Shown one piece after another: positions 4,422-52,010 of a stretch of DNA of 64,000 bases. Source of the DNA: Candidatus Woesebacteria bacterium (GTDB lineage: Bacteria > Patescibacteriota > Microgenomatia > UBA1400 > UBA12108); assembly GCA_018060845.1 (NCBI GenBank), contig JAGOVG010000001.1, forward strand, positions 86,070-150,069. Direction: 5' to 3'. Below the pieces are notes generated by a model. The model searched no databases. It worked only from the letters and a program-made list of their open reading frames with translations, and was not told the origin of the DNA. Within the stretch, counting starts at the first letter, position 1. Every line of letters begins with the position of its first letter. The translations under genes and the position numbers were made by a program.

Positions 4422-4460
4422 GTCGAAAGTAGCAAGTACCAAGTTATCAAGTTGAGAACA

Positions 4461-27801: not shown

Positions 27802-28680
27802 TTAGCGATCTTTAGCTTTTTCTGCCTTTAGATATGGATTGGGCATCCAGGACTCAATCATGTCCTTGGTAACTGGATCTGCCAACTTCCAGAGCGCTTG
27901 GTGGAGAGAGATCAATGAACTTGCGAGATTACTGCTTCTGATTTTGATTCCCCAGACTTCTTTGTCTTTGACTGAGACTATCCAGACACGATCGCCTTTG
28001 AGCCGGACCATAATATTAAAGTTTTGCATCTCAAATGGGAGGTAGCGAAACTGAGCACGATCTAGGTAGTGAGGGTTGCGCTCGACCTGATAAGAGAGGA
28101 CGTGTTTGGTCCAGTCGGTCATTGGGGTTAGATTGTACTCAATCCCCCTCCCACCCACACGTTTTTTAATACCTCGATCAACCCCTTTGTTCATTTCTAC
28201 CCCACCGGTCGCATCCATCGGGACTTGATAATCAAAAACATAGGAATCTTCATCGACTCCGTCGTAGTCAAACATGACGTAGTTGGCGCCCTCCATTCCT
28301 GGGAAAAACTGAAAATCAGAATCTGTTGTGTCTTTGAGATATTCTTTTTTTAGCCAAGGGAGGATTTCAACAATATCAACTTCCTGAGAATTTAGTGATT
28401 TTTGTTTGGTGTGAATGATGTCTCTGAGGACGCTCGGGTTTTTGACTATCACCTTGGTTTGCTGCTTCATGAGCCCCGTTGCACTCTCTAGTTCGACCAG
28501 ACCCTTTAGAGCGAGATCAGTTAAGACGGCATAGACAGTGGTACGAGCGATCCCGGTCGCTTTGGCAATTTTGAATGGCGAAGTTTGACCTAGCTCCACA
28601 GCTTTTTGGTAAACAATGGCTTCGTTGTCTGACAAGCCAAAGTTTTTTAAGACTTCGATTGTACGTTTTTGATAATCCAT
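27802..28680 (-). CDS. TrmB-family transcriptional regulator (paralog 1 of 4)
   Basis: N-terminal HTH with LGLSDNEAIVYQKAVELGQTSPFKIAKATGIARTTVYAVLTDLALKGLV. C-terminal TrmB-like effector domain. Confidence 0.65.
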   Translation of the reverse strand: MDYQKRTIEVLKNFGLSDNEAIVYQKAVELGQTSPFKIAKATGIARTTVYAVLTDLALKGLVELESATGLMKQQTKVIVKNPSVLRDIIHTKQKSLNSQEVDIVEILPWLKKEYLKDTTDSDFQFFPGMEGANYVMFDYDGVDEDSYVFDYQVPMDATGGVEMNKGVDRGIKKRVGGRGIEYNLTPMTDWTKHVLSYQVERNPHYLDRAQFRYLPFEMQNFNIMVRLKGDRVWIVSVKDKEVWGIKIRSSNLASSLISLHQALWKLADPVTKDMIESWMPNPYLKAEKAKDR

Positions 28681-28779
28681 TTTTCCCTCCCCTACTGTTG
28701 TTTACTGACGACAGTGATCGTCACTTTTGACACTAAGTATAGCAGGGGAGTAGGATACGAGCAACTATGGAGGATAGAT

Positions 28780-29553
28780 ATGTGCACGCAAGCAGTAAAG
28801 AGAGTAAATAATACCTGGTACCTTATGAAGACCCGTGACCCAGTGTCATGGATGCGGCACGAGGATGAGATCAAGCTCTTTGACTCCCCTACTGATAAGT
28901 ACCGCAAGCTGATTATCCAGAACCCAGTGCCTTACGAGGATGGATATTATGGAGGGATTAATGAGCAGGGAGTGGCCTTTATCTCGACATTTGTCAGAAC
29001 TAGCGAAGACCAGATCAGTTATATTCGCAAGCCATATATCAGGTTAATTTTGAATGCTGCTACTGCCAAAGAAGCTGTCGAGATAATCAAGAGCTTTAAC
29101 CCAAAAATTGGTGGGAATATGTTTGTCGCAGATCCAGATGAGTGTTACGGGATAGAAGCTACAGCTCATGAATACTTTGTCGAGCAGATCGATGATCAAG
29201 CAGTAAAGGCTAATCATTTTTGTCATATACCTGATCGGAATATCAACTTTAACAATGATCCAGAGTTTGAGATATGGAGTAAGACGCATGAGACCAGAGC
29301 TACAGAACTTGTTGCAGAGGTAGTTACTCTAGATGATTGCGAGCAACTACTGTCAGACCGAGCTAACAGTGGTACTAAACGGGCGATCTGTACCACACCA
29401 GAAGAAGCCCCGGTATATACCTACTCAGCGTTCGTGCTTGATACTAATAACAAGGTGGTGAGATATGCACAGGGATGCCCGGGTATAGTCGGGTTTAAGG
29501 AGTATTCGTTTAAGAAACCACCAAAGAACACTGCGACAGAACAGGTCGACTAG
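28780..29553 (+). CDS. Ntn-hydrolase-like protein (choloylglycine hydrolase / linear amide C-N hydrolase family-like)
   Basis: N-terminal MCTQAV with Cys2 as putative nucleophile, followed by an R-D pair (KTRD) as in CBAH/PVA enzymes. GGAGG RBS 7 nt upstream. Start trimmed from the longer ORF at 28669. Confidence 0.4.
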   Translation: MCTQAVKRVNNTWYLMKTRDPVSWMRHEDEIKLFDSPTDKYRKLIIQNPVPYEDGYYGGINEQGVAFISTFVRTSEDQISYIRKPYIRLILNAATAKEAVEIIKSFNPKIGGNMFVADPDECYGIEATAHEYFVEQIDDQAVKANHFCHIPDRNINFNNDPEFEIWSKTHETRATELVAEVVTLDDCEQLLSDRANSGTKRAICTTPEEAPVYTYSAFVLDTNNKVVRYAQGCPGIVGFKEYSFKKPPKNTATEQVD

Positions 29554-29568
29554 ATTACAATAACTCAC

Positions 29569-30756
29569 ATGGCAATAATCAAGATAGCAGAGCGAAATAT
29601 TCAAACTTTCTTTTATACCGAGGGGTTTAGGAGTCTGGTTTTTACAATCCCTGTCTGGATAGCATATCTACAGGAGCGGATCTCGATCCCACAGATATCA
29701 CTGTACCTGGCTATTGGATTTGCCACCCAGCTCATCCTAGAGCTGCCAACGGGAGCACTAGCAGACCTAATCGGGAGACGTAAAACCGTTATTCTGGGTC
29801 ACCTAATCGACTTTGTGCAGTACGGATTGTTTGCATTCGCCGTAACATTTCCCCAATTTGCTGTCCTCTCTGTTTTGTCTGGGACAGCTGAGGCGCTTCG
29901 CTCTGGGTCGCTCGAAGCACTGGTGTATGACTCGCTCAAACAGGAAAAACGGGAATCGGAGTTCCAATCCGTGATGGCAAAAATTGGTAAATGGTTCCAG
30001 ATAGGGCTGATGACTGGGACACTGCTCGGTGGCTTTATGGCGAGCTGGTGGGTGGCCCTGCCTTACCTGGCATCGTCTTTTGCCGTCTTTTGTGCAGGGA
30101 TCTGTGCCACGCGCTTTGTTGAGCCAACAATTGATAGCGAGAAGTTTGGGCTGCGCAACTACCTCCGACAAATTAAGTGGGGAGCGATAGAAGCCTTTAA
30201 GACCCAGAAGCACCGGGATATGTCGCTGTACTACATAGCTGTTGGGTCAATTACCTGGCTGTGTGCCACCTATTTTAACGATTCGATGTTGATTACCCTC
30301 GGCTTTGGTGGTGAAGAGCGCGGGATGATAGCGGCAGCACTAAGACTAATTAATGTGGTCGTGATAGCCAAACTACTGACTCAAGAAAAGTTATTCGATT
30401 TTCGCCGGACGATCATGTTCTTTCCTATCCTTATGTCTTTGGCATTACTACCCGGGTGGTGGCTGCAGGGATACTGGGGAGTCCCGTTTGTGGGTATGGC
30501 GATGATGGCTTCGACTGCTCGGTGGATACTGCTCGGCAAATATACTAACGCGGTTTTTTCCTCTAAATATCGGGCAACGGCGATCTCGGCCCTGTCTATG
30601 GCAATTAGTGTCATCTATATTTTAGGGGTAGTCTTGGCGGGACTGATCATGGGCAAGTACGGAGACACGAGACTCATATATAGTCTACTCGGGTTAATCA
30701 CAGTGTTCACTGTACCTTATCTTGGATACAGGCTAGTTGCAAATAAAGCTCGTTAA
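29569..30756 (+). CDS. MFS transporter (paralog)
   Basis: 12-TM profile. Motif LPTGALADLIGRRKTVILG (MFS loop 2-3 signature). Confidence 0.75.
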   Translation: MAIIKIAERNIQTFFYTEGFRSLVFTIPVWIAYLQERISIPQISLYLAIGFATQLILELPTGALADLIGRRKTVILGHLIDFVQYGLFAFAVTFPQFAVLSVLSGTAEALRSGSLEALVYDSLKQEKRESEFQSVMAKIGKWFQIGLMTGTLLGGFMASWWVALPYLASSFAVFCAGICATRFVEPTIDSEKFGLRNYLRQIKWGAIEAFKTQKHRDMSLYYIAVGSITWLCATYFNDSMLITLGFGGEERGMIAAALRLINVVVIAKLLTQEKLFDFRRTIMFFPILMSLALLPGWWLQGYWGVPFVGMAMMASTARWILLGKYTNAVFSSKYRATAISALSMAISVIYILGVVLAGLIMGKYGDTRLIYSLLGLITVFTVPYLGYRLVANKAR

Positions 30757-31607
30757 ATTAGTAAAACTGCACCAATAAAAGCCAAAACTGACCCAATTAT
30801 TTTATTGGGGATTCTGTTTCGCTCTTTGAGAAAAATGTAGCTGAGAATTGTTGTAGTAATAATACTTAATTGTTGTAGCGGTGAGATGATACTGGCCATA
30901 CCTCCTGCCTTGTAAGCTCCAAATATTGTGATGGAGGAAAGTGAATAAATGATACAGCATATTATCAGTTTTGCGAGAGTAGCTCTGTCGAAGTAGTGCG
31001 GGATAGCTTTTATTGAAGATGGTTTTACAAATAGTGTGAATATCCCAGGAAGAGTGAATGCTACAATCATATATGATGCAATGCTGTTGTATCGGCCAAT
31101 AATATAGGCGTCATTTATAAATGCAACACCAAATAGAAATGCACCCGCTGCTGCATAAAGGTGACCCAAGCTTAGCTTCCATTTTGATCGAGTAATATTG
31201 ATCACCACTATCCCACTGACTATTAATAAAATGCCTAGGTAGTTAGAGACCTTTAAGCGCTCTCCCAACAATACTGAGGCAGAAATGATTGCCCATATAG
31301 AGCTAGAGGAAAAAATGACGGCAACTTCTGAAGCATCGGCTAGTTTAAAGGCTTTGAAGGTAAATATATTGCCAAGACTGTAAAAGATGGTCATTACTAT
31401 CAGGTTTACCCATAGATCGGATATGTTGGGCAACTCTAAACTGTTGGTTGCTAAGGTATATATCAAGAATAATAGAGCAACTATTGTTTGAAACACAAAT
31501 CCTAGAGCGTAAGCGTCCCCCTGCTTGTTTGATAACAGTACCTTCTGCAACACCCTGGCAATAGAACCAAATAGTGCGCTAAGCAGTGCGAGCGTAATCC
31601 AACTCAT
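30753..31607 (-). CDS. EamA/DMT family transporter
   Basis: 10 TM helices with two EamA-like halves. AT-rich gene. Confidence 0.7.
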   Translation of the reverse strand: MSWITLALLSALFGSIARVLQKVLLSNKQGDAYALGFVFQTIVALLFLIYTLATNSLELPNISDLWVNLIVMTIFYSLGNIFTFKAFKLADASEVAVIFSSSSIWAIISASVLLGERLKVSNYLGILLIVSGIVVINITRSKWKLSLGHLYAAAGAFLFGVAFINDAYIIGRYNSIASYMIVAFTLPGIFTLFVKPSSIKAIPHYFDRATLAKLIICCIIYSLSSITIFGAYKAGGMASIISPLQQLSIITTTILSYIFLKERNRIPNKIIGSVLAFIGAVLLI

Positions 31608-31623
31608 ATGAGAATGATATCAC

Positions 31624-32817
31624 TTATCTATGCATGAATGATCTAGTTTTTGTAAATGATCTTTTTAGTGTGATTGTTAATAATATGACGACATATATCG
31701 AGAATAGCGTAGGGAGGTTTTGGATTTCAGTCATGTAGGCGAAGGCCATGGTCAGAAAGATATATGGTATCTGACTAAATAGTGCGAGAGTGGAGAGAGT
31801 GGTTGCGCGGTGTTTGGAGTCTGTATGCTCGTTGATAATGGTAGAGGTTAAGGGCTTAACGACATTCTCAATACTATTAATGATTAGGTAGTATGCTGCG
31901 CCAATTAGAGGGTTATTTGTTGTGGCGGCAACTAGAAAAGCAAGCGTGAAAGCAAGTAGACTAAATGTTGTTAATTTCTGATCTCCGAATCGTATGCGAA
32001 GTTGTGCAAATTTAAATGATACATAGATGGCGGGAATTGAGATCGCAGCAAATAGGTATCCGAATGTCTCACCGGAGTAGCCAAAATAAGCGGCGGTCGA
32101 CTGGCGAACAATACCTTGGTAGAGCTTAATGAAGGTGGCAAAGGTAAAGAGAGACAACAAGTATGGTCTAAGATTGTTATTAAAAAGTGTGATAGTCCCC
32201 TCTTTAAGATGCGCTAGGTAGTTACGAAAATTAAACCTGACAGTGTCTACTTTAGGTTCTTTCATAAAAATGAGAATAAGAATTGAGAAGATTAGAAAGA
32301 TTGTCCACGCATAAAATGGATAGGTGGGACTCTGGCCATAGAGATAGCCACCAATAACGGTTGAGAAAAGAGTGGCAGAAATGGTGATCGAAGATGATTT
32401 ACCAATAACTTCGGAATATTTGTCTGCTTTCTTTTTTTCTTTGAGGGAATCGTAGGCTAGAGCTTCGGTTGCGCCAGAGTGAAAAGCAAAACCAATAAAC
32501 ATAATTGAGTTACCAATGAGGAAGTGTTCGAATTGAGTAGAGTTAACAAGTATTAGACAGGAGATTAGTTGAAAGAGGCTTCCCATAATCAAAGTGTTGC
32601 GTTTACCTAAAAGGTCTGCGAGTACGCCTGAGGGAACTTCCATGATAATACCTATCAAGACTGCGATTCCTTCGACTAGTCCTACTTGGCTCTGTGAAAT
32701 ATACTGGCGGAAGTAGAATACCCAATTGGGGAGAATAAACCAGCCGTTAATGAACAAAGTTAACCAATAAAAGAGCCGAATATTGCTGATGCCGAAATAA
32801 GGGAAGTGTCTTTTCAT
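31624..32817 (-). CDS. MFS transporter (paralog)
   Basis: VPSGVLADLLGKRNTLIMG, 12 TM. Start set at MKRHF (GGGGGA RBS), 13 nt after the upstream stop. Confidence 0.75.
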   Translation of the reverse strand: MKRHFPYFGISNIRLFYWLTLFINGWFILPNWVFYFRQYISQSQVGLVEGIAVLIGIIMEVPSGVLADLLGKRNTLIMGSLFQLISCLILVNSTQFEHFLIGNSIMFIGFAFHSGATEALAYDSLKEKKKADKYSEVIGKSSSITISATLFSTVIGGYLYGQSPTYPFYAWTIFLIFSILILIFMKEPKVDTVRFNFRNYLAHLKEGTITLFNNNLRPYLLSLFTFATFIKLYQGIVRQSTAAYFGYSGETFGYLFAAISIPAIYVSFKFAQLRIRFGDQKLTTFSLLAFTLAFLVAATTNNPLIGAAYYLIINSIENVVKPLTSTIINEHTDSKHRATTLSTLALFSQIPYIFLTMAFAYMTEIQNLPTLFSIYVVILLTITLKRSFTKTRSFMHR

Positions 32818-32830
32818 AAATCCCCCGTCA

Positions 32831-33703
32831 CTATGATTTTTGGAAGATTTTTGATGGTAAGTTACCAATGATAATTGCTATAACGATTAACAATCCACCA
32901 TATAAATCTGTGGTGCTAGGAATTTCGGCAAAAAGTAGGTAGCCAAATAGAGTTGCAAACACGACTTCAGAAGAGATAGCTATAGTGCCTAGGTTTAAGT
33001 CAAAGTGTTGAAAACCATAGAGTAGTAGGTAGTTAACACTAAAGAGTAGAGCCCCAAAAATAATACCTACTACCCAGCTAGATGTAGTTATTGTGGGAAT
33101 TTGAAATGTTGCTGATTGGATCATAAAAATAGTTGCGACTATTATTCCCCCGATTTGTGGAATTAATGTCAAAACTACGCGATTTATTTTGCCTGACAGG
33201 TGTTTTCGGAAAGAATTGGAGACCACATCAAACAAACCGCCAACTATTCCTAATAGTATTCCAACATTAAATGAGTCAAATCCTTTTGCAAAGAAAGAAA
33301 ATCCGACCACTACCAACGCAAGGCTAAGAGCTTTTTGTAATGTAATTGTTTCTTTAAACACCAACATCCCAATTAAAAGAGAAGAGAAAATAGAACCTAG
33401 ATAAAACGAGAATATTGATAACATTATTGTGGTATTGAGAACAGATAGTGTGTAGCAAATGACGCCTATTGGAAAGGAGATACCAAATAGTAGTAGATAT
33501 TTAGGCGATACTCCCTCAAAATTGAGCTTTATTTTGGTAGTTATAATGATTAACAGGGCTACACCAAGAGCCATAACATTTCGAAAAGCAATTTGTTGGT
33601 AAGATGATAGATCGACAGACAAAAGTCTAACCCACACACCAAACGAGCCAAAAATAAGGCCTGCAAAAATTAGTGAGAGTAATCCAAGAGTTGATCGTTT
33701 CAT
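32831..33703 (-). CDS. EamA/DMT family transporter
   Basis: 10 TM, EamA repeats. Confidence 0.7.
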   Translation of the reverse strand: MKRSTLGLLSLIFAGLIFGSFGVWVRLLSVDLSSYQQIAFRNVMALGVALLIIITTKIKLNFEGVSPKYLLLFGISFPIGVICYTLSVLNTTIMLSIFSFYLGSIFSSLLIGMLVFKETITLQKALSLALVVVGFSFFAKGFDSFNVGILLGIVGGLFDVVSNSFRKHLSGKINRVVLTLIPQIGGIIVATIFMIQSATFQIPTITTSSWVVGIIFGALLFSVNYLLLYGFQHFDLNLGTIAISSEVVFATLFGYLLFAEIPSTTDLYGGLLIVIAIIIGNLPSKIFQKS

Positions 33704-33731
33704 TGGTATATGATAACAGAAATACTATAGT

Positions 33732-34580
33732 TTAATCATTCAAGTGCGCAGCTCCGCGAGAACTGGAAATTGTAAATTTGACAGCACCTGACCAGAGATA
33801 TTCAAAGAGTTGTCGCTGCATGTCGGCGAGCTCGCTAGAGTGGATCTCGACGCAAAAAATGTCATTCCCTGTGTATTTGTACGTGCAATAGACGTCGTTG
33901 TAGATGAGGATCTCAAACTGGAAAGGTTTACCATTCGGGTCTAAGTGTTTGATCTCCCAATATTTTTCGACTATCTCGGTGACGTTGGTATACGCATCTA
34001 CTTTTGTAGCATTGGTAAGGGTGCGAATTTTAATCCGGTTGTCCACAAATCTCTGACGTAGTTTTTCGGCTTCGTACTGATCCATAAATGCGTTCATTGT
34101 GGAGAGTTCGTACGTAAGGAGTTCTCCTTTGGCTTTTAGAGAGTTATAGGTAACCTGCTTGAGACCATCTATGCCATGATAATAGAGTACCCTTGACTTG
34201 GGAGATGCACTACTTATACCTGATAGTTCGGATTGGAGCGTAGGGAAAGTTTGGCGGAGTTTCTCTAGTTCGTGCTCGCGGTCTAAGAGGAGGAATTCTA
34301 GCTGGTCTGGTAGAGTTGCGACAAAACGCATGCCCCGCTCGCCTACCCTAGTCACAATTAATTTTTTAGCGAGCAAATTGTCCAATAACCTATACACCTT
34401 TGTTCTTGCTAGTTTAATATTGCGAGAAATAGTGAGAGCTGTGTCTGCCCTTCCCGATAATATCTCCAGGTATATTTTGGCTTCTAGCTCACCAATCCCA
34501 AATTGGGTGAGAAGAGAAATAGTAGTGTCTACTTTTTCGGACATCAGATTGAATATTAACAGATTTGTGGCAGAATGCAA
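33732..34580 (-). CDS. TrmB-family transcriptional regulator (paralog 2)
   Basis: HTH GIGELEAKIYLEILSGRADTALTISRNIKLARTKVYRLLDNLLAKKLI plus TrmB-like C-terminal domain. Confidence 0.6.
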   Translation of the reverse strand: MHSATNLLIFNLMSEKVDTTISLLTQFGIGELEAKIYLEILSGRADTALTISRNIKLARTKVYRLLDNLLAKKLIVTRVGERGMRFVATLPDQLEFLLLDREHELEKLRQTFPTLQSELSGISSASPKSRVLYYHGIDGLKQVTYNSLKAKGELLTYELSTMNAFMDQYEAEKLRQRFVDNRIKIRTLTNATKVDAYTNVTEIVEKYWEIKHLDPNGKPFQFEILIYNDVYCTYKYTGNDIFCVEIHSSELADMQRQLFEYLWSGAVKFTISSSRGAAHLND

Positions 34581-34946
34581 GAAAAAGGAGGAGTTATGAC
34601 TGAGTTTGCTAAACCATTATTGGATCTGGTGCCTGGGCAAGAAGGATTACTAAAAGATGTACAGGATTTAATGCTTGTCGGTGGCATGGCAATAAAACGA
34701 ATTGATTTTGAGTCTCGCAAAAGGCTAGAGCCTGATCTAGAAGCACATGGTGCTATGAGATATTACTCGATATTAGAATTGATGAATATTTTAGCTAAGT
34801 TAGTTGAGAGTGTTGATATGCAATCTGCACGATTGGGAATATCTTCTGAGACCTGGATGGATCATCAGGGATTTCTCTTAAAAAGAGCTCAAGATTACTG
34901 TATGCTTGGGAGAGCTGAAATTGTTCGTCTACAAAATCGAGCTTAA
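34575..34946 (+). CDS. Hypothetical protein
   Basis: 123-aa ORF, no motifs. Start may be at MTEFAK. Confidence 0.3.
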   Translation: MQEKGGVMTEFAKPLLDLVPGQEGLLKDVQDLMLVGGMAIKRIDFESRKRLEPDLEAHGAMRYYSILELMNILAKLVESVDMQSARLGISSETWMDHQGFLLKRAQDYCMLGRAEIVRLQNRA

Positions 34947-34955
34947 TAACTGTTT

Positions 34956-35534
34956 ATGATTACTACTAATTTATTTTTAATATTCTCTATAGTTGCAGGA
35001 TTTGTGTCGCCAATTATCGGCGTGACTAGTGTGATTAAGGGGAGTTTCCGACCCCAGAGAATGACTAGATTCCTTATTTTCCTGGTATCTCTCTTATTTG
35101 TTGGAACGCTGTATGCTCAGGGCGACCGAAATTCTATATATATGGCGAGCGCACAACTCCTGGGGAGTGCTGTTCTTTTTTACCTATCTCTCAAGCGAGG
35201 AATGGGTGGAAACAATAGACTAGATTGGATTGTTTTCGCGATGGCGATAGTGTCTCTGGTCGTATGGCAAACGACTAACAATCCCCTATTAGGCTTGATC
35301 ATGTCGATAGTGACGGATTTTATTGGCTTTGTACCAACCTTGATTAAGACGTGGAAGTATCCAGACACAGAAGACTGGAAATTTTATATGTCAGATGTCG
35401 TGGCAAGTTTTTTTAGTATTTTGTCGATTGGAGTATTTTCGCTTAGCAACCTAGTCTTTCCGATATACATTTTTATAATAAATATTGTGAGTGTCGTGAT
35501 GATCTTGGGGAGAAAAAGACGTCTCGCCAGGTAG
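34956..35534 (+). CDS. Small polytopic membrane protein (unknown function)
   Basis: 192 aa, about 6 TM helices. Confidence 0.4.
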   Translation: MITTNLFLIFSIVAGFVSPIIGVTSVIKGSFRPQRMTRFLIFLVSLLFVGTLYAQGDRNSIYMASAQLLGSAVLFYLSLKRGMGGNNRLDWIVFAMAIVSLVVWQTTNNPLLGLIMSIVTDFIGFVPTLIKTWKYPDTEDWKFYMSDVVASFFSILSIGVFSLSNLVFPIYIFIINIVSVVMILGRKRRLAR

Positions 35535-35720
35535 TGTTTTGGTTTATCGGTTCAATAGAATTTTTAAGACAATTTCTTTAACACTTCATTTGGTTTTCCA
35601 GATATGTAGATTGTGTCGGCAGGGTTGATGCCGAGATTCGTTTGTATAGATATGTTTGGAAATATTGTTGATCTGGTGATTTGGTTGTAGTCCGAAAAGG
35701 AATTGTCCAGCGACGAATGA

Positions 35721-36470
35721 TCAGTCTGCGACGATATAGCAAAATTGTTCATAGCGCTTCCCATCTTTATCTGGTGCAAAAAAGTCAGTGGAGCCTTGAG
35801 CGTTCTCTTGAGAATATTGAGATTTGTGGCACGCGATCGCCTGAGTTCTAATCTTCTCCTGATCGGTAATATCAATAAAAATTGTATCCTCGTGTCCCCA
35901 CGAGTCGACAAAGAGAAACTCGGAGCAGGAGTGGCCTGACAACCCGTCTTTAATATGCTCGGGATAGAAGAGGAGGTCGCGACTGTAGGGATAAGCGGCA
36001 TCGACAGTCACCTCGGCGGTATGGCGGTGATCGCGGTGATTGACGTAGTATCCCCCACTCTCGTCACGGATTAGTGTTTTTTCGGGATTGTGAGTGACAA
36101 TGAGATCGGGCTTAAATTTACGGATCTCTTTGACTACTTTGCCTATTGTTTCGAGATTAGTTTCGATCTCGCCATCACCTAGATCGAGATTAACGCTGTC
36201 AGTATATTTGAGTCCTAGGACTTTGAGTGCCTCTGCATCTTCTGACTCTCTGGTTTTGGCCAGGTCGGCTTCGGAGATAGTCTCGCCGCGAGACCCCTTG
36301 TTCCCTGTCGTCATCTTAATGAGTTTTACCTGCTTACCATCTTTGGCTAGTCTTGCGATTAGTCCTCCACAATAAATCTCGGCATCGTCGGGATGAGCAA
36401 AGACAAACATAACTCTTTGTTTTTCGCTGAATATTTTGGAGTATGAATCTTGCATTTGTATATTATACAA
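35721..36470 (-). CDS. PIG-L/LmbE family deacetylase
   Basis: MFVFAHPDDAEIYCGG and a downstream HxxH context (NHRDHRHTAEV). Confidence 0.75.
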   Translation of the reverse strand: MYNIQMQDSYSKIFSEKQRVMFVFAHPDDAEIYCGGLIARLAKDGKQVKLIKMTTGNKGSRGETISEADLAKTRESEDAEALKVLGLKYTDSVNLDLGDGEIETNLETIGKVVKEIRKFKPDLIVTHNPEKTLIRDESGGYYVNHRDHRHTAEVTVDAAYPYSRDLLFYPEHIKDGLSGHSCSEFLFVDSWGHEDTIFIDITDQEKIRTQAIACHKSQYSQENAQGSTDFFAPDKDGKRYEQFCYIVAD

Positions 36471-36476
36471 CTGGAT

Positions 36477-37328
36477 CTAGCGCATGAGGTAGATGGCGAT
36501 GAGGACCAGGATGCTAGAGAAGATTTTGCGAGCTAAGGAGTCGCGCTCGCCCAGAAGGAGGATTCCAATTAAGACCACAAAAGGGGTGGTTGAGGTGGCG
36601 ATCGGCATGACGTTGCTCGCCTCCCCTAGCGTTAGCGCTTTGAGCATAAAGCCATAACCAATGAGATTAAAGAATCCAAGTACTAGGAACTGCCACCAGG
36701 GAGTGAGTTTTAGCTCTCGTACTAATTGCTTCTTTTTGATAGTTGGGAAGAATGAGCTCATGACGACTGGCGCAAAGAACGAGAACATACAAAACACCCC
36801 TACTCCCCAGGCCTTGACGTTGACGGCGTCAAAGAGCCAGGCGACTGAAAGAATGAGAGCGAGTAGTAGTGTATATCGCACACCTCTTGGATCAATTTTG
36901 GCGTGTCGGAGGTTGCCTGCTAAGAGAATAATGTTGGCCGCGACAATTAAGATAACCCCGGCGAGTTTGGAGTAAGTAAAAGTCTCTCCAAGAAAAATGA
37001 GAGCTAGGAAAAAACTTATGACAGGACCTAGTTTGATTATGATCGAGAAAACTGAGGCCTCGGTGTGTTTTTTGGCAAAGTATTCAAAACGTCCGTTGAG
37101 TCCCCAGATAACGAGACCGAGAACAGTCATAAAGATGACGTAGGGAGTGATGCCTGTGGGCATGGTCTGATCAAAGAGGAAAATAATGGGAGACATGAGG
37201 GCGACGCCTAGGTTATAGATGACGGCAAATGCCTGAGGGTTCTCGGAGCGAGTAGCTAGGTAGCGGCCAGCAACGTCGTATATGACAAAGAATGATACTG
37301 CTAGGAGGGAGAGAATAAGCCAAGACAT
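36477..37328 (-). CDS. EamA/DMT family transporter
   Basis: 10 TM, EamA repeats. Confidence 0.7.
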   Translation of the reverse strand: MSWLILSLLAVSFFVIYDVAGRYLATRSENPQAFAVIYNLGVALMSPIIFLFDQTMPTGITPYVIFMTVLGLVIWGLNGRFEYFAKKHTEASVFSIIIKLGPVISFFLALIFLGETFTYSKLAGVILIVAANIILLAGNLRHAKIDPRGVRYTLLLALILSVAWLFDAVNVKAWGVGVFCMFSFFAPVVMSSFFPTIKKKQLVRELKLTPWWQFLVLGFFNLIGYGFMLKALTLGEASNVMPIATSTTPFVVLIGILLLGERDSLARKIFSSILVLIAIYLMR

Positions 37329-37335
37329 GAATTAA

Positions 37336-37731
37336 TTATGACAGATCTTCTGGTGATTGGAGTAGTTGATTCATTGCTTGTTGGACTCTATTCGCGTCAA
37401 AACCTTCAGCTTCAATGTTTTCAACGCCAACCAACTGCAGTAAATAGACTGCCGAAGGGTAACCTCCGTCTGAGTAAAGAATTCTTTCAATGAGTTGGAA
37501 GGCGACCTGCCACGGGGGAGCGCCCGTGTAGACGTGCGAGCGAACATTGTCTGGAAAATGAGCTTCTATTAGTAATTCCCATCGTTCTTTTGCGTCAAGG
37601 GGTCCGACAAGTTCCACTAATTCTTGTTGGACTGTTATGCGTGTGGCACTGGAAATAAGACTTTTTTGAATAATCTGGAATTCGACTGATTGATCTCCTC
37701 CTCCAATGACTTCCCTATATTTGGTATTCAT
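37336..37731 (-). CDS. Hypothetical protein
   Basis: 131-aa ORF, no recognised motif. Confidence 0.3.
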   Translation of the reverse strand: MNTKYREVIGGGDQSVEFQIIQKSLISSATRITVQQELVELVGPLDAKERWELLIEAHFPDNVRSHVYTGAPPWQVAFQLIERILYSDGGYPSAVYLLQLVGVENIEAEGFDANRVQQAMNQLLQSPEDLS

Positions 37732-37791
37732 GCACGCGATTTTAGATTAATCTGGATAAGTAATATACTTGTTGTGTATAATTTGCACAGT

Positions 37792-38586
37792 ATGAGTAAA
37801 CATAATAAAGATAAGATTATTGAGTTTGTGCAGAAGATGGGATTTTCCGCGGAAGCAGCGAGGGTATACCAAACCATGGTTTTGCGTGGGGCGATGAGCT
37901 TGTCTGAACTATCGAGAGAGTCGGGGGTAGAGCGGACGAGGTTATACCGCCAAGTACCAGAGTGGGTGGCGCAAGGTCTACTACAAGAACTACTGGCATA
38001 TAAATCACGTCGATATGCGGCAGTAGAGCCCACAATGCTTGCCAACAAACTTAGTGTGCAGAAGAAGAGAATTGAGGAGTTAGAGCTACAAGTTCCCGAG
38101 ATAGAGCAGATAGCCAGCGAAGCAATGGGCCAGCAAAAGACCAGGGTTAAGTACTTCCGGGGAGTTGAAGGGATCAAGCAGATACTTTGGAATGAGAGTA
38201 AAGCCAGGAGCGAAGTAGTGGGATATACCTACCGAAACTTGATTGAGGTGGTGGGGAAAGAGTTTTTTGAAGAGTATGCGAGAGAGCTTGAGAAAAATAA
38301 AGTGAAGATGCGTGACCTGCGCGCAGACGCGTTTATGGAGAGCGTTAAGAGCGAAGGGTTTGTGAGGAGACACATTGAACACTCTGGTTGGAGGTATCTA
38401 CCTGACTCGACCATGAAGCTGACCCACAACTTAGATGTTTACGATGATGTGGTTGCTATGTACTACTGGGATGATAATGATGTCTGGGGAGTGGAGATCC
38501 AGAATGCGCGCATGGCGAAGATGCAGAGGAGTATTTTTGAGACTCTGTGGGGGATCGCTAAAAAAGTAAAACTAGAAAGCCGCTAA
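37792..38586 (+). CDS. TrmB-family transcriptional regulator (paralog 3)
   Basis: HTH MGFSAEAARVYQTMVLRGAMSLSELSRESGVERTRLYRQVPEWVAQGLL. A TATAAT lies just upstream of the ATG at 37792. The longer ORF from 37690 was trimmed. Confidence 0.6.
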   Translation: MSKHNKDKIIEFVQKMGFSAEAARVYQTMVLRGAMSLSELSRESGVERTRLYRQVPEWVAQGLLQELLAYKSRRYAAVEPTMLANKLSVQKKRIEELELQVPEIEQIASEAMGQQKTRVKYFRGVEGIKQILWNESKARSEVVGYTYRNLIEVVGKEFFEEYARELEKNKVKMRDLRADAFMESVKSEGFVRRHIEHSGWRYLPDSTMKLTHNLDVYDDVVAMYYWDDNDVWGVEIQNARMAKMQRSIFETLWGIAKKVKLESR

Positions 38587-38882
38587 TCAGGATGAATGAT
38601 TTGGCCGGTGGCGTAGCGATGAAGGATACTACTGGCTAGCGTTTGGTAAGGCATACCCAGCTTTGCTGCTGACTCCCTAAGTTTCTCTAGGGTCGTTGGC
38701 TGTAAGCGGATATTAATGTTTTTTGATTTAACAAGTTTAAGAGTCAGAGCTGCAGAGCGCTTCAGCTCTTCGCGGCGCTTAGTAATGTTTTTAACTGACT
38801 TCCACTCACCCCTATTATAAGAGTCAAGTATTTCTTGCTCTTCTTTGTCAAGCTTGTAGACTGGTTCTAATATAGATTTCAT
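38583..38882 (-). CDS. brnA: BrnA-type antitoxin (ribbon-helix-helix)
   Basis: 99 aa. ...NINIRLQPTTLEKLRESAAKLGMPYQTLASSILHRY resembles the BrnA antitoxin family. It overlaps the upstream toxin ORF by 4 nt. Confidence 0.6.
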   Translation of the reverse strand: MKSILEPVYKLDKEEQEILDSYNRGEWKSVKNITKRREELKRSAALTLKLVKSKNINIRLQPTTLEKLRESAAKLGMPYQTLASSILHRYATGQIIHPD

Positions 38883-39187
38883 ATATTTTTCTCCTTGGTT
38901 AGATTATATTTTTTATTAGCTTTGCGGCTGGGAATAATTGTCTTTAGAAAGCGTTTTTCTGAGTCTTCGACGTATGGAACTAGATAGGTGTAGTTACGAA
39001 TAGAGACTATGAGCATTTGTTGATGTGGATATTTTGATTGATTGGGGTGTGGACCATCAAAGAGGACTCTTTTTGCTTTAACTGCTCTGACTACTTGATC
39101 AAAAGTAATTTTCCGCAAAGCTTTTAATGTGCTATTTTTATCTGGATCCCACTCGAATGGCTTGTCCATACTTGGATAATATGACAA
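38879..39187 (-). CDS. brnT: BrnT-type toxin
   Basis: FEWDPDKNSTLKALRKITFDQVVRAV, the BrnT family N-terminal signature. Confidence 0.6.
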   Translation of the reverse strand: MSYYPSMDKPFEWDPDKNSTLKALRKITFDQVVRAVKAKRVLFDGPHPNQSKYPHQQMLIVSIRNYTYLVPYVEDSEKRFLKTIIPSRKANKKYNLTKEKNI

Positions 39188-39204
39188 ATGATATACAATG
39201 TCAA

Positions 39205-40383
39205 CTACTTAATCTGTTTACTGAGATAAATTGCAGATGGCAAGACGAGGATGAGACCAATAATAGCGGAGTAGCCGAAGGTGGTCGCAACACTCCCCTG
39301 CTCCATAAGATAGCCGATGAGTGGTCCTACGCCAGCGATTAGGATATTACCGAGGAGAGAGATGGCAGAGAGACTGGTCGCACGATAGCGGGATTCGAGT
39401 TCGACGTTCTGTAGTCTAGTGAGGATAGGGCTCCTCATGCCGTCGGACATTTTGCGCAAGTAGACACTACTGACCGCCCCAAAGCTATTTTCAATAAATG
39501 AGAGAGCAGAGCCAAATGCCTGGAAAAGAGTAAGGAAAATTGGGATATTCTTGTCTCCGAGCTTCATAACCAAAGGAATCAGCTTGGTGCCGAGTGCGCG
39601 AATTACGTATGTACCTGCTACCAGATATCCCAGGTAAGAGGCGGGAAAGTTGGCTTCGGCGAGCCTGGGCTCATACAGATACCACAAGCCGACATAGGCT
39701 ACAAAATTGATCGCAATGCTGAAAATAGAAATGGCGGCGATACGAGAATGGCGGAAGATGTGGATGGTCCCCTCCCAGTTTTGGCGTAAATATGATTTGA
39801 GAGTAAATTTCTCACTATCTAGCTCTGGTTCTTCGAGGGGAAGCGCAGTAATGAGAGCACCAATAGCCACTAGTGTGGTTAAGGCATAAGGGAGCTGGGG
39901 ATGTAGCGTATAGAGATAGCCGCCCAGCACACTACTGATTGCCATACCGATAGTGCACCAAAAGAAGGTGTCTGCCTCGACTTTTTGATACTCTTCTTCG
40001 CTACGACCATTTTCTTTCATAGAGTCAAATAGGAGTGCAGAGAGGGCGCCTGATTCAAATGCCCAGTTGGCGAGGTAGAGAATGTTACCAAGTAAAAACA
40101 TCCAAAAGTTGGTTGCAAAGGTGAGGATGCCAAAACCGACAACACCGAGGACGCGACCAAGTAGGACGGTGTTTTTCCGTCCCCAGAGATCAGCTAGAGC
40201 ACCTGATGGGAGCTCAAGTAGTAGTTGGAGAAAAAGACTAATTGAGGTAATGAGAGCTATTTCTTGCCACGATAAATAACTGCGCCAGATAAGCACCCAG
40301 ACACCAATGACTACAAAAAACCACTGAAAAATCGACGTGATCATGAAGTATTTGATGTTTTGTTTGACGTTGGTTTTGGCCAT
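39205..40383 (-). CDS. MFS transporter (paralog)
   Basis: LPSGALADLWGRKNTVLLG, 12 TM. Confidence 0.75.
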   Translation of the reverse strand: MAKTNVKQNIKYFMITSIFQWFFVVIGVWVLIWRSYLSWQEIALITSISLFLQLLLELPSGALADLWGRKNTVLLGRVLGVVGFGILTFATNFWMFLLGNILYLANWAFESGALSALLFDSMKENGRSEEEYQKVEADTFFWCTIGMAISSVLGGYLYTLHPQLPYALTTLVAIGALITALPLEEPELDSEKFTLKSYLRQNWEGTIHIFRHSRIAAISIFSIAINFVAYVGLWYLYEPRLAEANFPASYLGYLVAGTYVIRALGTKLIPLVMKLGDKNIPIFLTLFQAFGSALSFIENSFGAVSSVYLRKMSDGMRSPILTRLQNVELESRYRATSLSAISLLGNILIAGVGPLIGYLMEQGSVATTFGYSAIIGLILVLPSAIYLSKQIK

Positions 40384-40472
40384 AGTATTTATTTTATGTT
40401 ATCCACATATGTTTGTGGTTATCAACATAGTTGTCCACATATTCTATCTGTATTATTGAATATGTTAAACTG

Positions 40473-41240
40473 ATGTTCACTATGGTGAACAGGTCATTAC
40501 TCAGAATAATTAAGCAGATGGGGCTGACAAGTAAACATGCTTTGATATATGAGATCCTCAATAAGAAGCCTGCCACTACCCCACTACAATTATCACGTGA
40601 AACTAAGTTGAATAGATCGTCGCTCTACCGCTATCTCGAAGAACTGAGAGAGAGAGGGTTAGTTGAGCTAATTTTAGGTGACAAGACGAGCAAATACCGG
40701 ACAAGTCCAGATGGATTTGACCGATACCTCGCAAGCGAAGAGCTGCGAGTCACAAGCCTGAAGAACGAGATCCCCGCCCTCCTGCGAGCGCTGCCAAAAA
40801 ATGAAGGTGGAGAGCGGTCTGAAATAAAGTACTTTCAAGGTAAAGATGGGCTTAAACAAATGCTGTGGAATGTGGTCTCTAGTGGGCACGACTTCGTCGG
40901 CTTAGGATATGAGGATTGGAATACCAGTGTAGGTAAAACTTTTGCTGAGAGATTGCGCGTAAAGAATATAGAAACTGGGGCAAGATCCCGAGAAATAACA
41001 AATGATAAAGATGATGATTATGAATATACGACTCTTGGAGAGAAGTATCATAAGGTTTATGAACACCGCGGAATCAACGCAACCGTCCTAGAGATCAAAC
41101 ACGACACGTATATTTATGGCGAAGTTTTTTCCTATTACTACCACTATCAGGGCGAGCACTTTGGCGTCGAGATACATAACAGAGAGATTGCTAGGACTGA
41201 GAGACAGATGTTTGAAATTTTGTGGAAAATAGCAAAATAG
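40473..41240 (+). CDS. TrmB-family transcriptional regulator (paralog 4)
   Basis: HTH MGLTSKHALIYEILNKKPATTPLQLSRETKLNRSSLYRYLEELRERGLV. The C-terminal domain is similar to the other three paralogs (..FGVEIHNREIARTERQMFEILW). Start uncertain. Confidence 0.6.
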   Translation: MFTMVNRSLLRIIKQMGLTSKHALIYEILNKKPATTPLQLSRETKLNRSSLYRYLEELRERGLVELILGDKTSKYRTSPDGFDRYLASEELRVTSLKNEIPALLRALPKNEGGERSEIKYFQGKDGLKQMLWNVVSSGHDFVGLGYEDWNTSVGKTFAERLRVKNIETGARSREITNDKDDDYEYTTLGEKYHKVYEHRGINATVLEIKHDTYIYGEVFSYYYHYQGEHFGVEIHNREIARTERQMFEILWKIAK

Positions 41241-50425: not shown

Positions 50426-51772
50426 ATGGATGCTACCTCAGTATGGAGAGCGGTATTAACCGATCTAGAACTTACATTGTCTAAGACGTATTTTGCTGGA
50501 TATATCAAACCTTTATCGCTCATCTCATTAGAACAAGAGGGTGGTCGCGTAACCGCAACCATATTGTCTCCCACCAAATACCACGTCCAGATGATGGATG
50601 AAAAATATGGGAAGCACGTAATAAAGGCGATTGAGAGAGTAGTTAACAGCCCATGCACCATTAAGTACGAAATAGGCAAGGAGGGGGGAATGGAGCAGAC
50701 TGGCTCTATGCCACTATTTCAGCCGGCTCCCAAAGTAAGTGCTCCGATAGGGAGCGGATCACACAACCTTAATCCAAGGTTAACTTTTGACACTTATATT
50801 GTTGGTTCTTCGAACAACTTTGCATATGCTGCAGCACAAGGAGCGGCCAAGAGTCCTGGAACGAGATATAACCCTTTGTTTATTTATGGCGGAGTAGGAC
50901 TTGGTAAGACCCACCTTATGCATGCCATAGGTCACGCCGTGTACGCAGACCATCCAGACTGGGACATTATGTATATCTCGGCAGAGACCTTTGGGAGCGA
51001 TTTGATTGCGAGCTTACAGAACAAGAGAACGGCGGCGTTTAAAAAGAAGTATCGTGCGCCAAACCTACTACTAATCGATGACATTCAGTTTATTGCCGGC
51101 AAAGAATATATACAAGAAGAGTTTTTTCACACCTTTAACGAGTTATATATGTCTCAAAGACAGATTGTCCTCACATCTGACAGACCCCCACAAGAGATCT
51201 CACGACTAGAAGAGCGGCTCTCCTCCCGATTTATGGGTGGACTCATGGTGGATGTACAAAGCCCTGACTTTGAGACAAGAACTGCGATTTTGACGCAAAA
51301 ATGTATTGTGCTAGGACTCGAGGTTTCGCCAGACCTAATTGCACTAGTTGCCGAGAAGGCGGTGGGTAATATCCGTGAGCTAGAGGGAACTCTCCAAGCA
51401 ATAATTGCCAAGTCACATTCAGAAAAGAGACCAATAGATCAAGACCTGATTAGAGAAAACTTTGGAGCATCGTCTGAGCGGCGAAATCACCGGATTAGGC
51501 CACAATCAGTAATAAATAAGACTGCTCAATATTTTAGTTACAAAGTAACAGAGTTAACGGGGGCGAGCCGCAAGGCACCGCTGACAGCGGCAAGGCACAC
51601 TGCGATGTATTTGTTATATGAAGAGTTGTCACTACCATACGTGCAAATAGGGGAGCTGTTTGGCGGGAGAGATCATACAACCATAATCCACGCGGTTGAA
51701 AAGATTAAAGAAGAGTTAAAAACTAATCCTCAACTCTCAAAGACTCTGGCAGACATAAGACATGATTTATGA
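50426..51772 (+). CDS. dnaA: Chromosomal replication initiator protein DnaA
   Basis: AAA+ Walker [14 protein letters not shown], Walker [11 protein letters not shown]-terminal DnaA-box-binding HTH ([11 protein letters not shown]). Confidence 0.93.
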
Positions 51773-51775
51773 GGC

Positions 51776-52010
51776 CCGCAAGTTATCCACATCAGTTGTG
51801 GATAAGTATGAGGAAAAGTAAGGGAAAAGATGAGGATAACTTGAGGATAATGGTGGATAAGTCGGTTATCAACAATAACCCTTTACTTATCCCCAAACCT
51901 ATCCGAGCGGTTATCCACACTACTAGCAGATAGGTATCCACTTATCCACTGACCCTACTATAATTACTAATTAATATTAAAGTGAATAGTCTATAGTACA
52001 TATAAGGGGA
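51776..52010. promoter_or_regulatory. oriC: DnaA-box cluster and AT-rich unwinding element between dnaA and dnaN
   Basis: TTATCCACA at 51784 and 51911. TGTGGATAA at 51797, forming a palindromic pair with the 51784 box. Near-consensus boxes TGGATAAG, TTATCCCCA, GTATCCACTTATCCACT. AT-rich stretch 51961-52005. Confidence 0.6.

Follow-up and report, generated by a model that had tools for sequence, protein, structure and literature searches.

We analysed a stretch of 64,000 nucleotides from the genome of a Candidatus Woesebacteria bacterium (GenBank assembly GCA_018060845.1, contig JAGOVG010000001.1, positions 86,070 to 150,069 of the forward strand), which is referred to below as the window. Within 13.4 kb of it, from 27.8 to 41.2 kb, Pfam searches revealed an array of four TrmB-family regulators (T1 to T4), three transporters of the major facilitator superfamily (MFS1 to MFS3) and three of the EamA family (EamA1 to EamA3), together with a C45/AAT Ntn-hydrolase-like gene, a PIG-L deacetylase gene and a weakly scoring BrnT/BrnA pair. 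The inventory had been proposed in a sequence-only reading of the same DNA, and the Pfam matches confirm it, less strongly for this last pair. When the window was scanned with a hidden Markov model (HMM) of the regulator family and with iterated HMMs of the two transporter families, all of its 10 T, MFS and EamA genes fell inside the 13.4 kb, and no further gene of these kinds was detected in the other 50 kb; for this reason, the clustering of regulators and transporters is not due to chance. The array is flanked by Fic and Nudix genes on the left, and by genes for a TPR protein, ribosomal protein L25 and a DUF4012 protein of 925 amino acids (aa) on the right.

The genes of the array are the following (names of orthogroups in brackets; Pfam gathering scores are 25.6 bits for PF01978, 28.2 for EamA PF00892, 28.2 for PF02585 and 23.2 for PF03417):

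27802 to 28680, minus strand: T1 (Tg), TrmB-like regulator of 292 aa; PF01978 45.8 bits, E 2e-67 with the A1-profile HMM
28780 to 29553, plus strand (open reading frame 28669 to 29553): C45/AAT-type Ntn-hydrolase-like gene; likely Met-Cys start after GGAGGA, PF03417 42 bits
29569 to 30756, plus strand: MFS1 (MFSd); MFS_1 75.9 bits
30753 to 31607, minus strand: EamA1, DMT transporter; EamA 81.9 bits, two repeats
31624 to 32868, minus strand: MFS2 (MFSc); likely start at ATG 32817, MFS_1 83.8 bits, MFS_3 36.5 bits
32831 to 33703, minus strand: EamA2, DMT transporter; EamA 51.7 bits, 28 nt downstream of T2 on the same strand
33732 to 34544, minus strand (open reading frame to 34580): T2 (Tc); PF01978 39.4 bits, likely start at ATG 34544
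34596 to 34946, plus strand: u123, small soluble protein; first gene of the operon divergent from T2
34956 to 35534, plus strand: u192, membrane protein of 192 aa with seven transmembrane segments and a predicted PQ-loop/SWEET/KDEL-receptor-like fold
35567 to 35662, minus strand: remnant of a gene for a 165-aa protein
35721 to 36470, minus strand: PIG-L/LmbE-type deacetylase; PF02585 102 bits, last gene of the u131-EamA3-PIG-L operon
36477 to 37328, minus strand: EamA3 (EamAa); EamA 80.6 bits, the commonest partner of T3
37336 to 37731, minus strand: u131, small protein; its slot, flanked by EamA3 and T3, is hypervariable
37792 to 38586, plus strand (open reading frame from 37690): T3 (Ta), 264 aa; PF01978 35.0 bits
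38583 to 38882 and 38879 to 39187, minus strand: probable BrnA and BrnT, respectively; weak Pfam scores, with a promoter-like site of their own
39205 to 40383, minus strand: MFS3 (MFSa); MFS_1 47.7 bits
40473 to 41240, plus strand (open reading frame from 40431): T4 (Td); PF01978 34.3 bits, start at 40473 or 40482

The start of T2 is conserved as ATGTCCGA in the alignment of orthologous regions from 8 loci, and for u123 the start after AAAGGAGGAG is preferred. Each regulator faces an operon on the opposite strand: C45 hydrolase-MFS1 (T1), u123-u192 (T2), u131-EamA3-PIG-L (T3) and MFS3 (T4). The claim that every regulator is adjacent to, and mostly divergent from, a transporter therefore describes T4 exactly, the only regulator that directly faces one, and has to be loosened for the others: T1 and T3 are each divergent from an operon whose second gene is a transporter, and T2 is co-directional with EamA2, heading EamA2-MFS2-EamA1 on its own strand. 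Because the product of u192 has a predicted PQ-loop/SWEET-like fold, T2 also faces a gene of transporter fold, and the region would hold seven transporter candidates.

Regulators of the array and their paralogs

All four T proteins exceed the PF01978 gathering score. In an alignment of 38 sequences the family is about 265 aa long, with R48, Y52 and W253 invariant. A profile search of the PDB gave TrmB (3qph) and TrmBL2 (5bpd) as top matches, spanning the helix-turn-helix and the next helix, and the invariant Tyr52 (T3 numbering) aligned with the Tyr of the 'RVYD' motif of TrmB; this is Tyr50 of Pfu TrmB, which is reported to be important in DNA recognition (PMC4158304). The AlphaFold2 model of T3 (pLDDT 90.7) shows a winged helix-turn-helix, a helix of about 30 residues (80 to 111) and a mixed alpha/beta domain. 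When submitted to Foldseek, it matched TrmBL2 (5bpd, 5bqt) over its full length (E 1e-15, 19-22% identity), whereas the match to the TrmB sugar-binding domain 2f5t was partial (E 6e-6); the C-terminal domain alone matched the PLD-fold nucleases Nuc, NucT and Zucchini. None of the four T proteins gave a match to PF11495, or any Pfam match past residue ~115, and the T3 model ends after the PLD-like domain, lacking a complete C-terminal sugar-binding effector domain with its beta-barrel subdomain. Since the proteins are 255-292 aa long, without PF11495 and without the beta-barrel subdomain, we assigned them to the TrmBL2 type and not to the TrmB/TrmBL1 type. Judged from sequence profiles and the model, T1 to T4 are proteins of TrmB fold with a predicted TrmBL2-type architecture (winged helix-turn-helix, coiled coil, PLD-like domain) and not generic MarR proteins, in agreement with their first description.

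The family is large: a full HMMER scan gave at least 787 clusters at 50% identity with E<=1e-30. All homologs found come from Patescibacteria, and named members are either 'sugar-specific transcriptional regulator TrmB' or Patescibacteria helix-turn-helix proteins. T3 itself is 100% identical to the hypothetical protein KBD69_00660 of a Candidatus Woesebacteria metagenome-assembled genome. More distant T genes face SDR, PNPOx-like and methionine sulfoxide reductase (PMSR) genes or lie in heliorhodopsin neighbourhoods, and because these are other kinds of genes, the family appears to be one of general local regulators, not tied to transporters. On Saccharimonadales-type contigs (L004/L005, 7903-8901; L045, 1216-1995) a T gene has a conserved neighbourhood with methionine sulfoxide reductase, heliorhodopsin and HAD hydrolase genes; a PNPOx-like gene belongs to this neighbourhood in L004/L005, and in L045 its place is taken by an open reading frame of 155 aa without a Pfam match.

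All-against-all BLASTP within the window showed that the paralogs are detectably related, as had been expected. The MFS pairs share 27-32% identity over the full length (E 1e-32 to 1e-43); T2, T3 and T4 share 25-28%, again over the full length (E 1e-28 to 1e-33); T1 and T3 are 20% identical (E 5e-13), and EamA1 and EamA3 21% (E 1e-5). EamA2 is tied to the other two EamA proteins by the Pfam profile alone. Orthologs in other Woesebacteria are far closer. T1 has a counterpart with 92% identity in locus L008 (L numbers denote the contigs compared below), and the orthologs of T2 are 84, 72, 66 and 42% identical, those of T3 up to 89% and that of T4 73% (L002). The corresponding values are 94% (L008) and 66% (L002) for MFS1, 57% for MFS2, 90% for MFS3, 90% (L008) for u123, and 61-65% for EamA2, whose orthologs in L008 and L002 lie elsewhere in the array. 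EamA1 has no close ortholog in any fetched locus. Clustering at 40-45% identity separated the four regulators into four orthogroups and the three MFS proteins into three. As paralogs are 20-32% identical and orthologs elsewhere in Woesebacteria 57-94%, the regulator and transporter families must be old. The idea of a duplicated module family does not survive this comparison: recent local tandem duplication is excluded, and the sequences indicate an array assembled by shuffling.

Candidate operators and promoter-like sites

The DNA upstream of each regulator orthogroup was aligned, and the specificity of the patterns obtained was checked in 453 kb of non-redundant loci. In each dyad-bearing subfamily, a dyad lies just downstream of a -10-like hexamer (TATACT or TATAAT), before or across the start codon of the regulator. 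We also scanned the region for promoter-like sites, which in this work are consensus matches only. Their total number (27) equals that expected from shuffled sequences (27.3), and for this reason only the positions of the best sites, which fall in control regions, were used, as hints. The elements of the window are the following:

37764 to 37789: T3 control element, consisting of a TATACT -10-like box and, after it, the dyad TGTGTA-N5-TGCACA (37773-37789), whose end is 2 nt from the ATG
37753 to 37782, plus strand: promoter-like site of T3, TGGATA-18-TATAAT; its -10 box lies in the spacer of the T3 dyad, 9 nt before the ATG
40474 to 40491: T4 candidate operator, TGTTCA-N6-TGAACA, exact match overlapping the T4 start codon(s)
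40468 to 40441, minus strand: promoter-like site of MFS3, TTAACA-16-TAGAAT
40399 to 40439, plus strand: three direct boxes, TTATCCACA, TTATCAACA and TTGTCCACA, in the predicted MFS3 leader within the MFS3-T4 intergenic region
28706 to 28723: T1 candidate operator, TGACGA-N6-TCGTCA, between a TATACT -10-like hexamer and the T1 start
28727 to 28756, plus strand: promoter-like site of the C45-MFS1 operon, TTGACA-18-TAGGAT, 10/12 consensus positions, just after the T1 dyad
34545 to 34595: control region between T2 and u123, with a promoter-like TTGCAT-16-TAATAT-8-ATG for T2 conserved in 8 orthologous regions
39204 to 39176, minus strand: promoter-like site of BrnT, TTGACA-17-TATTAT, 11/12 consensus positions, the best of the region

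The T3-type element, tGTATAcTTGTTGTG(C/T)A-N5-TGCACA, is common to 22 distinct sequences upstream of T3 orthologs, where it ends 1-4 nt before the start codon and the remainder of the intergenic region is not conserved. In the 453 kb, TGTGYA-N5-TGCACA was found only directly before T-family genes, and its carriers include T genes of Saccharimonadales and other Patescibacteria with 31-37% protein identity. The T genes of the Saccharimonadales-type contigs L004/L005 and L045 carry the same TGTGCA-N5-TGCACA site. Among 17 distinct dyads of this type, five of the six arm positions are invariant, the sixth being C:G eleven times, T:G five times and C:A once, with sixteen different 5-nt spacers and no compensatory double change; many T3 orthologs have TATAAT inside the spacer. 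TGTTCA-N6-TGAACA is present in 5/5 Td loci and nowhere else in the 453 kb, and the T3 and T4 dyads each occur once in the window. The T1 dyad, which abuts the -35 box of the predicted C45/MFS1 promoter, is identical in the window and in L008 and absent from the rest of the 453 kb. Two further subfamilies have elements of their own: Tb shows GTGTATAATTGtTGTCCA-N5-TGAACA plus a second dyad, TGTCC-N7-GGACA, beside the divergent gene, and Te shows TGTCG-N11-CGACA. Dyads of Tb, Td, Te and Tg were found only at the genes of their own subfamily.

No single operator is common to the four control regions, and the search for shared dyads in the divergent intergenic regions, which had been suggested, gave none; instead, T2 excepted, there is one distinct dyad per subfamily. 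The half-site covaries with residue 47, located where the recognition helix starts. The helix reads E-R-T in every subfamily using TGTGCA and N-R-T/S where the half-site is TGTCCA or TGTTCA, and residue 47 is A, P or K in subfamilies with other sites. At the sequence level, an inverted repeat at or just downstream of the core promoter, a trait of TrmB-family operators, is present. In both its 6-N5-6 geometry and its location, the element agrees with the TGM site of TrmBL1/Tgr, TATCAC-N5-GTGATA, which during repression is situated downstream of the core promoter element and overlaps the transcription start (PMC4158304).

The starts of T2, T3 and u131 (34544, 37792 and 37731) have no Shine-Dalgarno sequence and follow a -10-like box by 6-9 nt, which suggests that their mRNAs may be leaderless; T1, u123 and the C45 gene have clear GGAGG sites.

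The three direct boxes were placed in the MFS3 leader on the basis of the MFS3 promoter-like site. They are kept in 5/5 Td loci even where the facing gene is different, and they fit the DnaA-box consensus used at the putative oriC of the window; they could be either extra T4 sites or a cluster of DnaA boxes. The left half-site of the T3 dyad with its spacer was also considered as a DnaA box, a reading that we discarded, as it does not fit the orthologs whose spacer is GAAAG. As for the putative oriC, the window contains dnaA (50426-51772) and dnaN (52014-53117), and the 240-bp spacer between them holds ten DnaA-box-like 9-mers (TTATCCACA, <=1 mismatch), especially at 51783-51950. This spacer is very probably oriC, from which the array lies about 10-24 kb away.

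A chromosomal slot shared with related genomes

Contigs carrying relatives of T3 (the L-numbered loci) were compared with the window. Many Woesebacteria-type genomes share one slot, bordered by Nudix on one side and by TPR, L25, DUF4012, RNase H and polysaccharide genes on the other, and regulator-transporter modules of the kind that had been claimed recur in it. The slot holds 1-5 T-family genes plus EamA, MFS and small enzymes; in relatives, the cargo comprises glyoxalase/VOC, APH, SDR, serine hydrolase, ApbA, cytidine/dCMP deaminase-like, PNPOx-like and PIG-L genes. Of 57 T genes in these relatives, 50 are transcribed divergently from the neighbour upstream. The direct neighbour is an MFS or EamA gene in 26 cases, and in 34 such a gene lies no more than two genes away; transporters account for 11.6% of all genes of these loci. 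The facing pair Ta-EamAa was found in at least 11 loci and the facing pair Td-MFSa in 3/5; Tc recurrently faces a small open reading frame plus membrane protein, and PIG-L follows EamAa in L008, L017 and L021. As for the right border, the DUF4012 protein (42483-45260, minus strand) stands beside L25, and its position and size (~900-1009 aa) are kept in all related loci; it forms the fixed border of the variable slot.

At the DNA level, the array is variable, a patchwork with respect to its relatives, which bears out its description as an accessory region. Identity with L008 is 83% for T1, 87% for MFS1 and 90% for T2-u123-u192; with L017, it is 90% for MFS2 and 85% for PIG-L-EamA3; with L016, it is 90% for EamA3, 88% for T3, 93% for MFS3 and 90% for the right flank. 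The C45 gene, EamA1 and u131 have no DNA match in the compared relatives. The arrangement also differs: the block EamA1-MFS2-EamA2 is missing between MFS1 and T2 in L008, where the EamA2 and MFS2 homologs adjoin TPR instead, and in L017 the MFS2 counterpart comes immediately after the ortholog of T2.

Close relatives differ in the gene that comes first behind two of the divergent promoters, while the regulator, the operator and the transporter further downstream keep 84-94% identity. The position of the C45 gene is taken in L008 by an unrelated open reading frame of 260 aa (3842-4624). In the same manner, the u131 slot holds in relatives at least four unrelated families of open reading frames, one of them PNPOx-like, and u131 shows no DNA similarity to L016 or L017 despite flanking genes that are 84-90% identical to theirs. 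This exchange of first genes looks cassette-like, without recognisable recombination sites.

BrnTA-like pairs stand at differing positions inside the arrays of L019, L022 and L026. A 165-aa gene that is intact in L008, and looks GNAT-like by eye only, survives in the window as the remnant at 35567-35662 (minus strand; 66% identity in tblastn to the C-terminal 31 aa, E 8e-10), which shows that genes have decayed within the array. Neither integrase or transposase genes nor a tRNA border were found at the array. We regard it as an internal plasticity zone and not as a foreign island.

Transporters, enzymes and the proposed working of the modules

MFS1 to MFS3 all match MFS_1 and contain motif A; the motif that had been singled out in them is indeed present, and is merely this generic one. 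In the profile search, the best PDB match was NorA, nearly over the full length (E 1e-6), and EmrB and EfpA were matched as well. The NCBIfam matches were to the HP1165, Tet, TetA(P) and EntS efflux families, with 28-51 bits as compared to cut-offs of 475-800, and no MFS protein reached the score of a curated efflux family. Antiporter motif C of transmembrane helix 5 reads GxxxGPxxGGxL. In the MFS proteins, two glycines of this helix (G154, G155) are invariant, in the context GxxxS/GxxLGGYL. Homologs of MFS3, with 50-90% identity across Microgenomates, bear generic names only. On these sequence affinities, we lean towards the view that the MFS proteins are H+-antiport exporters.

The three EamA proteins belong to the DMT carriers, with two tandem EamA repeats each, all above the gathering score. 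The EamA profile matched the choline importer LicB, which is the best solved relative, SLC35B1 and the exporter YddG. Single-sequence searches of the PDB with MFS3 and EamA3 gave no match, whereas the profile searches did, and NCBIfam was uninformative on the EamA proteins, u123, u131 and u192. The product of u192, first noticed as a small polytopic membrane protein, is indeed a membrane protein, which can be refined to a transporter-fold candidate: its AlphaFold2 model (pLDDT 90.6, pTM 0.84) has seven helices and matched cystinosin, KDELR and SWEET in Foldseek (TMq 0.60-0.65, E 4e-3 to 1e-1), and P33 is invariant in the 'RPQR' motif of the family. This family, which lacks a Pfam domain, is found throughout the candidate phyla radiation (CPR; Woesebacteria, WWE3), with ~190 aa and ~60-65% identity; a fusion to PF14206 (Cys-rich CPCC) occurs in two homologs. 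Neither u192 nor u123 matched Pfam or NCBIfam, and no family match in the two databases was obtained for u131. The chances that the EamA3-PIG-L and u123-u192 modules serve import appear evenly balanced.

The PIG-L protein has the AHPDD metal-binding motif (FAHPDDAE) and, with its PF02585 score, is a member of the PIG-L/LmbE family; it is not a BshB1 equivalog (101 bits, cut-off 182.5). The C45 protein exceeds the PF03417 gathering score and stays below the cut-off of NCBIfam C45_proenzyme NF040521 (70.5 vs 85); a single-sequence search of the PDB gave no match. Its plausible start after a Shine-Dalgarno sequence is Met-Cys, an N-terminal nucleophile Cys being a mark of the C45 family. The BrnTA pair that had been reported is a probable one: the toxin-first order with a 4-nt overlap fits such pairs, and among the Pfam scores BrnT (24.3 vs 34.5) and BrnA (22.8 vs 26.1) are under the cut-offs, with CopG_antitoxin at 28.9 vs 28 bits.

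Taking these observations together, we consider it likely that the region consists of independent, autoregulated repressor-transporter modules with private operators, probably released by ligands. The array would thus comprise four independent one-component modules about 10-24 kb from oriC. Each regulator would bind as a dimer to the palindrome specific to its subfamily, repressing itself and, probably, the facing operon, because the palindrome lies downstream of the regulator's -10-like hexamer in a divergent control region of only 50-100 bp. Repression may then be lifted when the PLD-like domain senses a small molecule. The modules would derive from old paralog families, shuffled by recombination among Woesebacteria at a fixed slot and not duplicated locally. 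Control of the facing operon appears better supported for T1 and T4 than for T3, because their candidate sites adjoin the promoter or leader on the facing side or fall within it.

Several observations weigh against this reading. The T3 dyad lies beside the T3 start in a 60-bp region, at least 40 nt from the start of u131, and its position on the T3 side makes control of the facing operon less secure than autoregulation. No convincing dyad was found for T2 in the alignment of 8 orthologous regions, and the T1 operator comes from only two closely related sequences. Pairings of regulator and transporter are not fixed: the T4 ortholog of L002 faces an EamA gene, and MFSa occurs without Td in L011, L016 and L022. 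Residues of the C-terminal domain that are conserved across all paralogs may serve dimerisation rather than ligand binding. With respect to export, the MFS matches to efflux families are far under the curated cut-offs (51 vs 700 bits), and Ser or Thr stands in place of the Pro of motif C. Finally, the solved structure closest to the T proteins is that of TrmBL2, a chromatin protein of low specificity for which no ligand is known (PMC4158304).

The relation to the archaeal proteins can be summarised as follows. The T proteins share with TrmB/TrmBL1 (Tgr) of Thermococcales the PF01978 winged helix-turn-helix with the DNA-recognition Tyr, the coiled-coil dimerisation helix, the PLD-like first subdomain of the effector domain, 6-N5-6 inverted repeats downstream of the core promoter element for repression, and genes beside transporter operons; autoregulation has also been reported in the TrmB family (PMC4158304). 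They differ in being bacterial (CPR) and shorter (~265 vs ~340 aa), in lacking the C-terminal beta-barrel sugar-binding subdomain, in having MFS, DMT and PQ-loop secondary transporters as partners instead of ABC sugar importers, and in their operator sequences. TrmBL2 (TK0471/PF0496; 5bpd, 5bqt) is the best full-length structural match and has the same length (264 aa) and the same three-part architecture without the sugar-binding barrel. It shows little specificity, binding in coding and intergenic DNA alike, and acts as a global repressor or chromatin protein (PMC4158304), whereas dyad-bearing T subfamilies have a single conserved, subfamily-specific palindrome at their own promoter and several paralogs per locus. 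Indirectly, a TrmBL2-like nucleoid role of the T proteins is argued against by the presence of one palindrome per gene, by the specificity of the sites and by the covariation with the helix residue.

As regards bacterial counterparts, TetR-TetA, QacR-QacA and MarR/EmrR-type systems consist of a small dimeric repressor divergent from a secondary transporter, with a palindromic operator and autoregulation. The modules described here, known from sequence alone, follow the same divergent repressor-transporter logic; they differ in that the regulators are TrmB-like with a PLD-like domain and in that at least four modules are concatenated, and shuffled, at one slot. The MFS proteins resemble DHA-type antiporters (NorA, HP1165, Tet(A), EntS) in MFS_1, motif A and the motif-C-like GG, and depart from them in matches far below the curated cut-offs and in the absent motif Pro; the EamA proteins resemble DMT/EamA carriers (LicB, YddG) in their two repeats and in the profile matches to LicB, SLC35B1 and YddG.

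An alternative to the likely repressor-transporter modules, already present in the first reading of the locus, is that inducible modules import small host-derived metabolites (e.g. N-acetylated sugars, amides, vitamins) and convert them with PIG-L, the C45 hydrolase and other enzymes. In archaea, TrmB and TrmBL1 govern transporters for sugar uptake, and the substrate releases these regulators (PMC4158304); EamA3 is co-operonic with the PIG-L gene in several genomes, and some of the cargo of relatives could be salvage enzymes (cytidine/dCMP deaminase-like, ApbA, PNPOx-like); this precedent and linkage, together with the LicB-like and SWEET-like predicted folds, are compatible with uptake. However, the nearest relatives of the MFS profile are efflux antiporters (NorA, EmrB, EfpA, HP1165, Tet, EntS), EamA relatives comprise an importer (LicB) and an exporter (YddG), the modules come with neither solute-binding proteins nor catabolic pathways, and other cargo (glyoxalase/VOC, APH, SDR, and PMSR beside distant T genes) suggests stress or detoxification. 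Nothing ties the substrates to a host, and the scavenging lifestyle that had been proposed remains speculation. We judge this explanation unlikely.

According to a second alternative, the locus would be a chemical-defence island in which toxic compounds, detected by the repressors, induce exporters and modifying enzymes, in the manner of MarR, TetR and QacR systems. The affinities of the MFS proteins, which are those of drug:H+ antiporters, speak for export or detoxification, as does some of the cargo across the loci (glyoxalase/VOC, APH, SDR, serine hydrolase, PIG-L, C45 amidase). Opposite distant T genes there are PNPOx-like and PMSR genes, and variability from strain to strain is typical of resistance loci. 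On the other hand, the 50-90% conservation of MFS3 across Microgenomates is more housekeeping-like, no curated resistance model was reached, and EamA and PQ-loop relatives include importers. This explanation seems to us as doubtful as uptake; since the evidence points both ways, uptake of host metabolites is possible and is not favoured over its rival.

The candidate operators could also have a different meaning, if the dyads were RNA hairpins of 5' leaders, or if the T proteins were non-specific nucleoid proteins like TrmBL2, their closest structure, and adjacency to transporters had no regulatory meaning. The dyads could form 6-bp stems, in which a G-U pair would remain after C to T, the one arm change that is frequent. 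Yet the 17 dyads contain no compensatory double change, and in one variant pairing is lost; the dyad adjoins or overlaps a start codon without a Shine-Dalgarno sequence and has TATAAT in its spacer in many orthologs; a residue of the recognition helix varies together with the half-site; in Tb another copy stands at the divergent gene; and the strict distribution of one site per T gene is unexpected for a non-specific binder. Both variants are thus very unlikely. Recent tandem duplication of one regulator-transporter pair, or arrival as a foreign mobile island, is extremely improbable and was rejected: like genes are clustered, a toxin-antitoxin pair lies inside the array and GC is slightly lower at 32-36 kb (0.39-0.41 vs ~0.45 for the window), but the identities of paralogs and orthologs, the absence of integrase and transposase genes and of a tRNA border, and the conservation of the slot and its flanks (Fic-Nudix; TPR-L25-DUF4012) in many Woesebacteria contradict it, and all homologs found are from Patescibacteria.

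A broader reading, which goes beyond the autoregulated modules and is tentative, would be that the ~265-aa TrmBL2-like proteins are the main family of small-molecule-responsive transcription factors of Patescibacteria, with an operator code that can be read from the sequence and, near oriC of Woesebacteria, a recombination hot spot with cassette-swapped first genes. The code would comprise the 17-bp palindrome TGTGCA-N5-TGCACA, kept in lineages as far apart as Woesebacteria and Saccharimonadales, and residue 47, by which the half-site seems to be determined. If this were true, the locus would be a strain-specific chemical interface with host or environment.

To our knowledge, gene regulation in CPR bacteria is almost unstudied. 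The full-text literature that we searched contained nothing on TrmB in the Candidate Phyla Radiation, Patescibacteria or Saccharibacteria, nor on transporters and regulators of Woesebacteria, and nothing relevant on the TrmB family in connection with efflux. The divergent repressor-transporter design is already known, as is the TrmB-like annotation of such proteins in databases. What appears to be undescribed in the searched literature is a TrmBL2-type family as putative sequence-specific local regulator in Patescibacteria, a conserved set of predicted operators with a candidate specificity residue, and a shuffled multi-module array at one chromosomal slot. The regulator family, the predicted 17-bp operators, the candidate specificity residue and the target operons make up a testable regulator-operator system. 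Moreover, the transporter complement close to oriC is a strain-variable mosaic, which bears on how organisms with reduced genomes exchange small molecules with their surroundings.

Immediately after dnaN, the window continues with genes for a VirB4/TraG-type ATPase (53169-55052), a PrgI-family protein (56058-57080) and a protein of 948 aa with a weak CHAP match (57746-60592), which together resemble a type IV secretion set.

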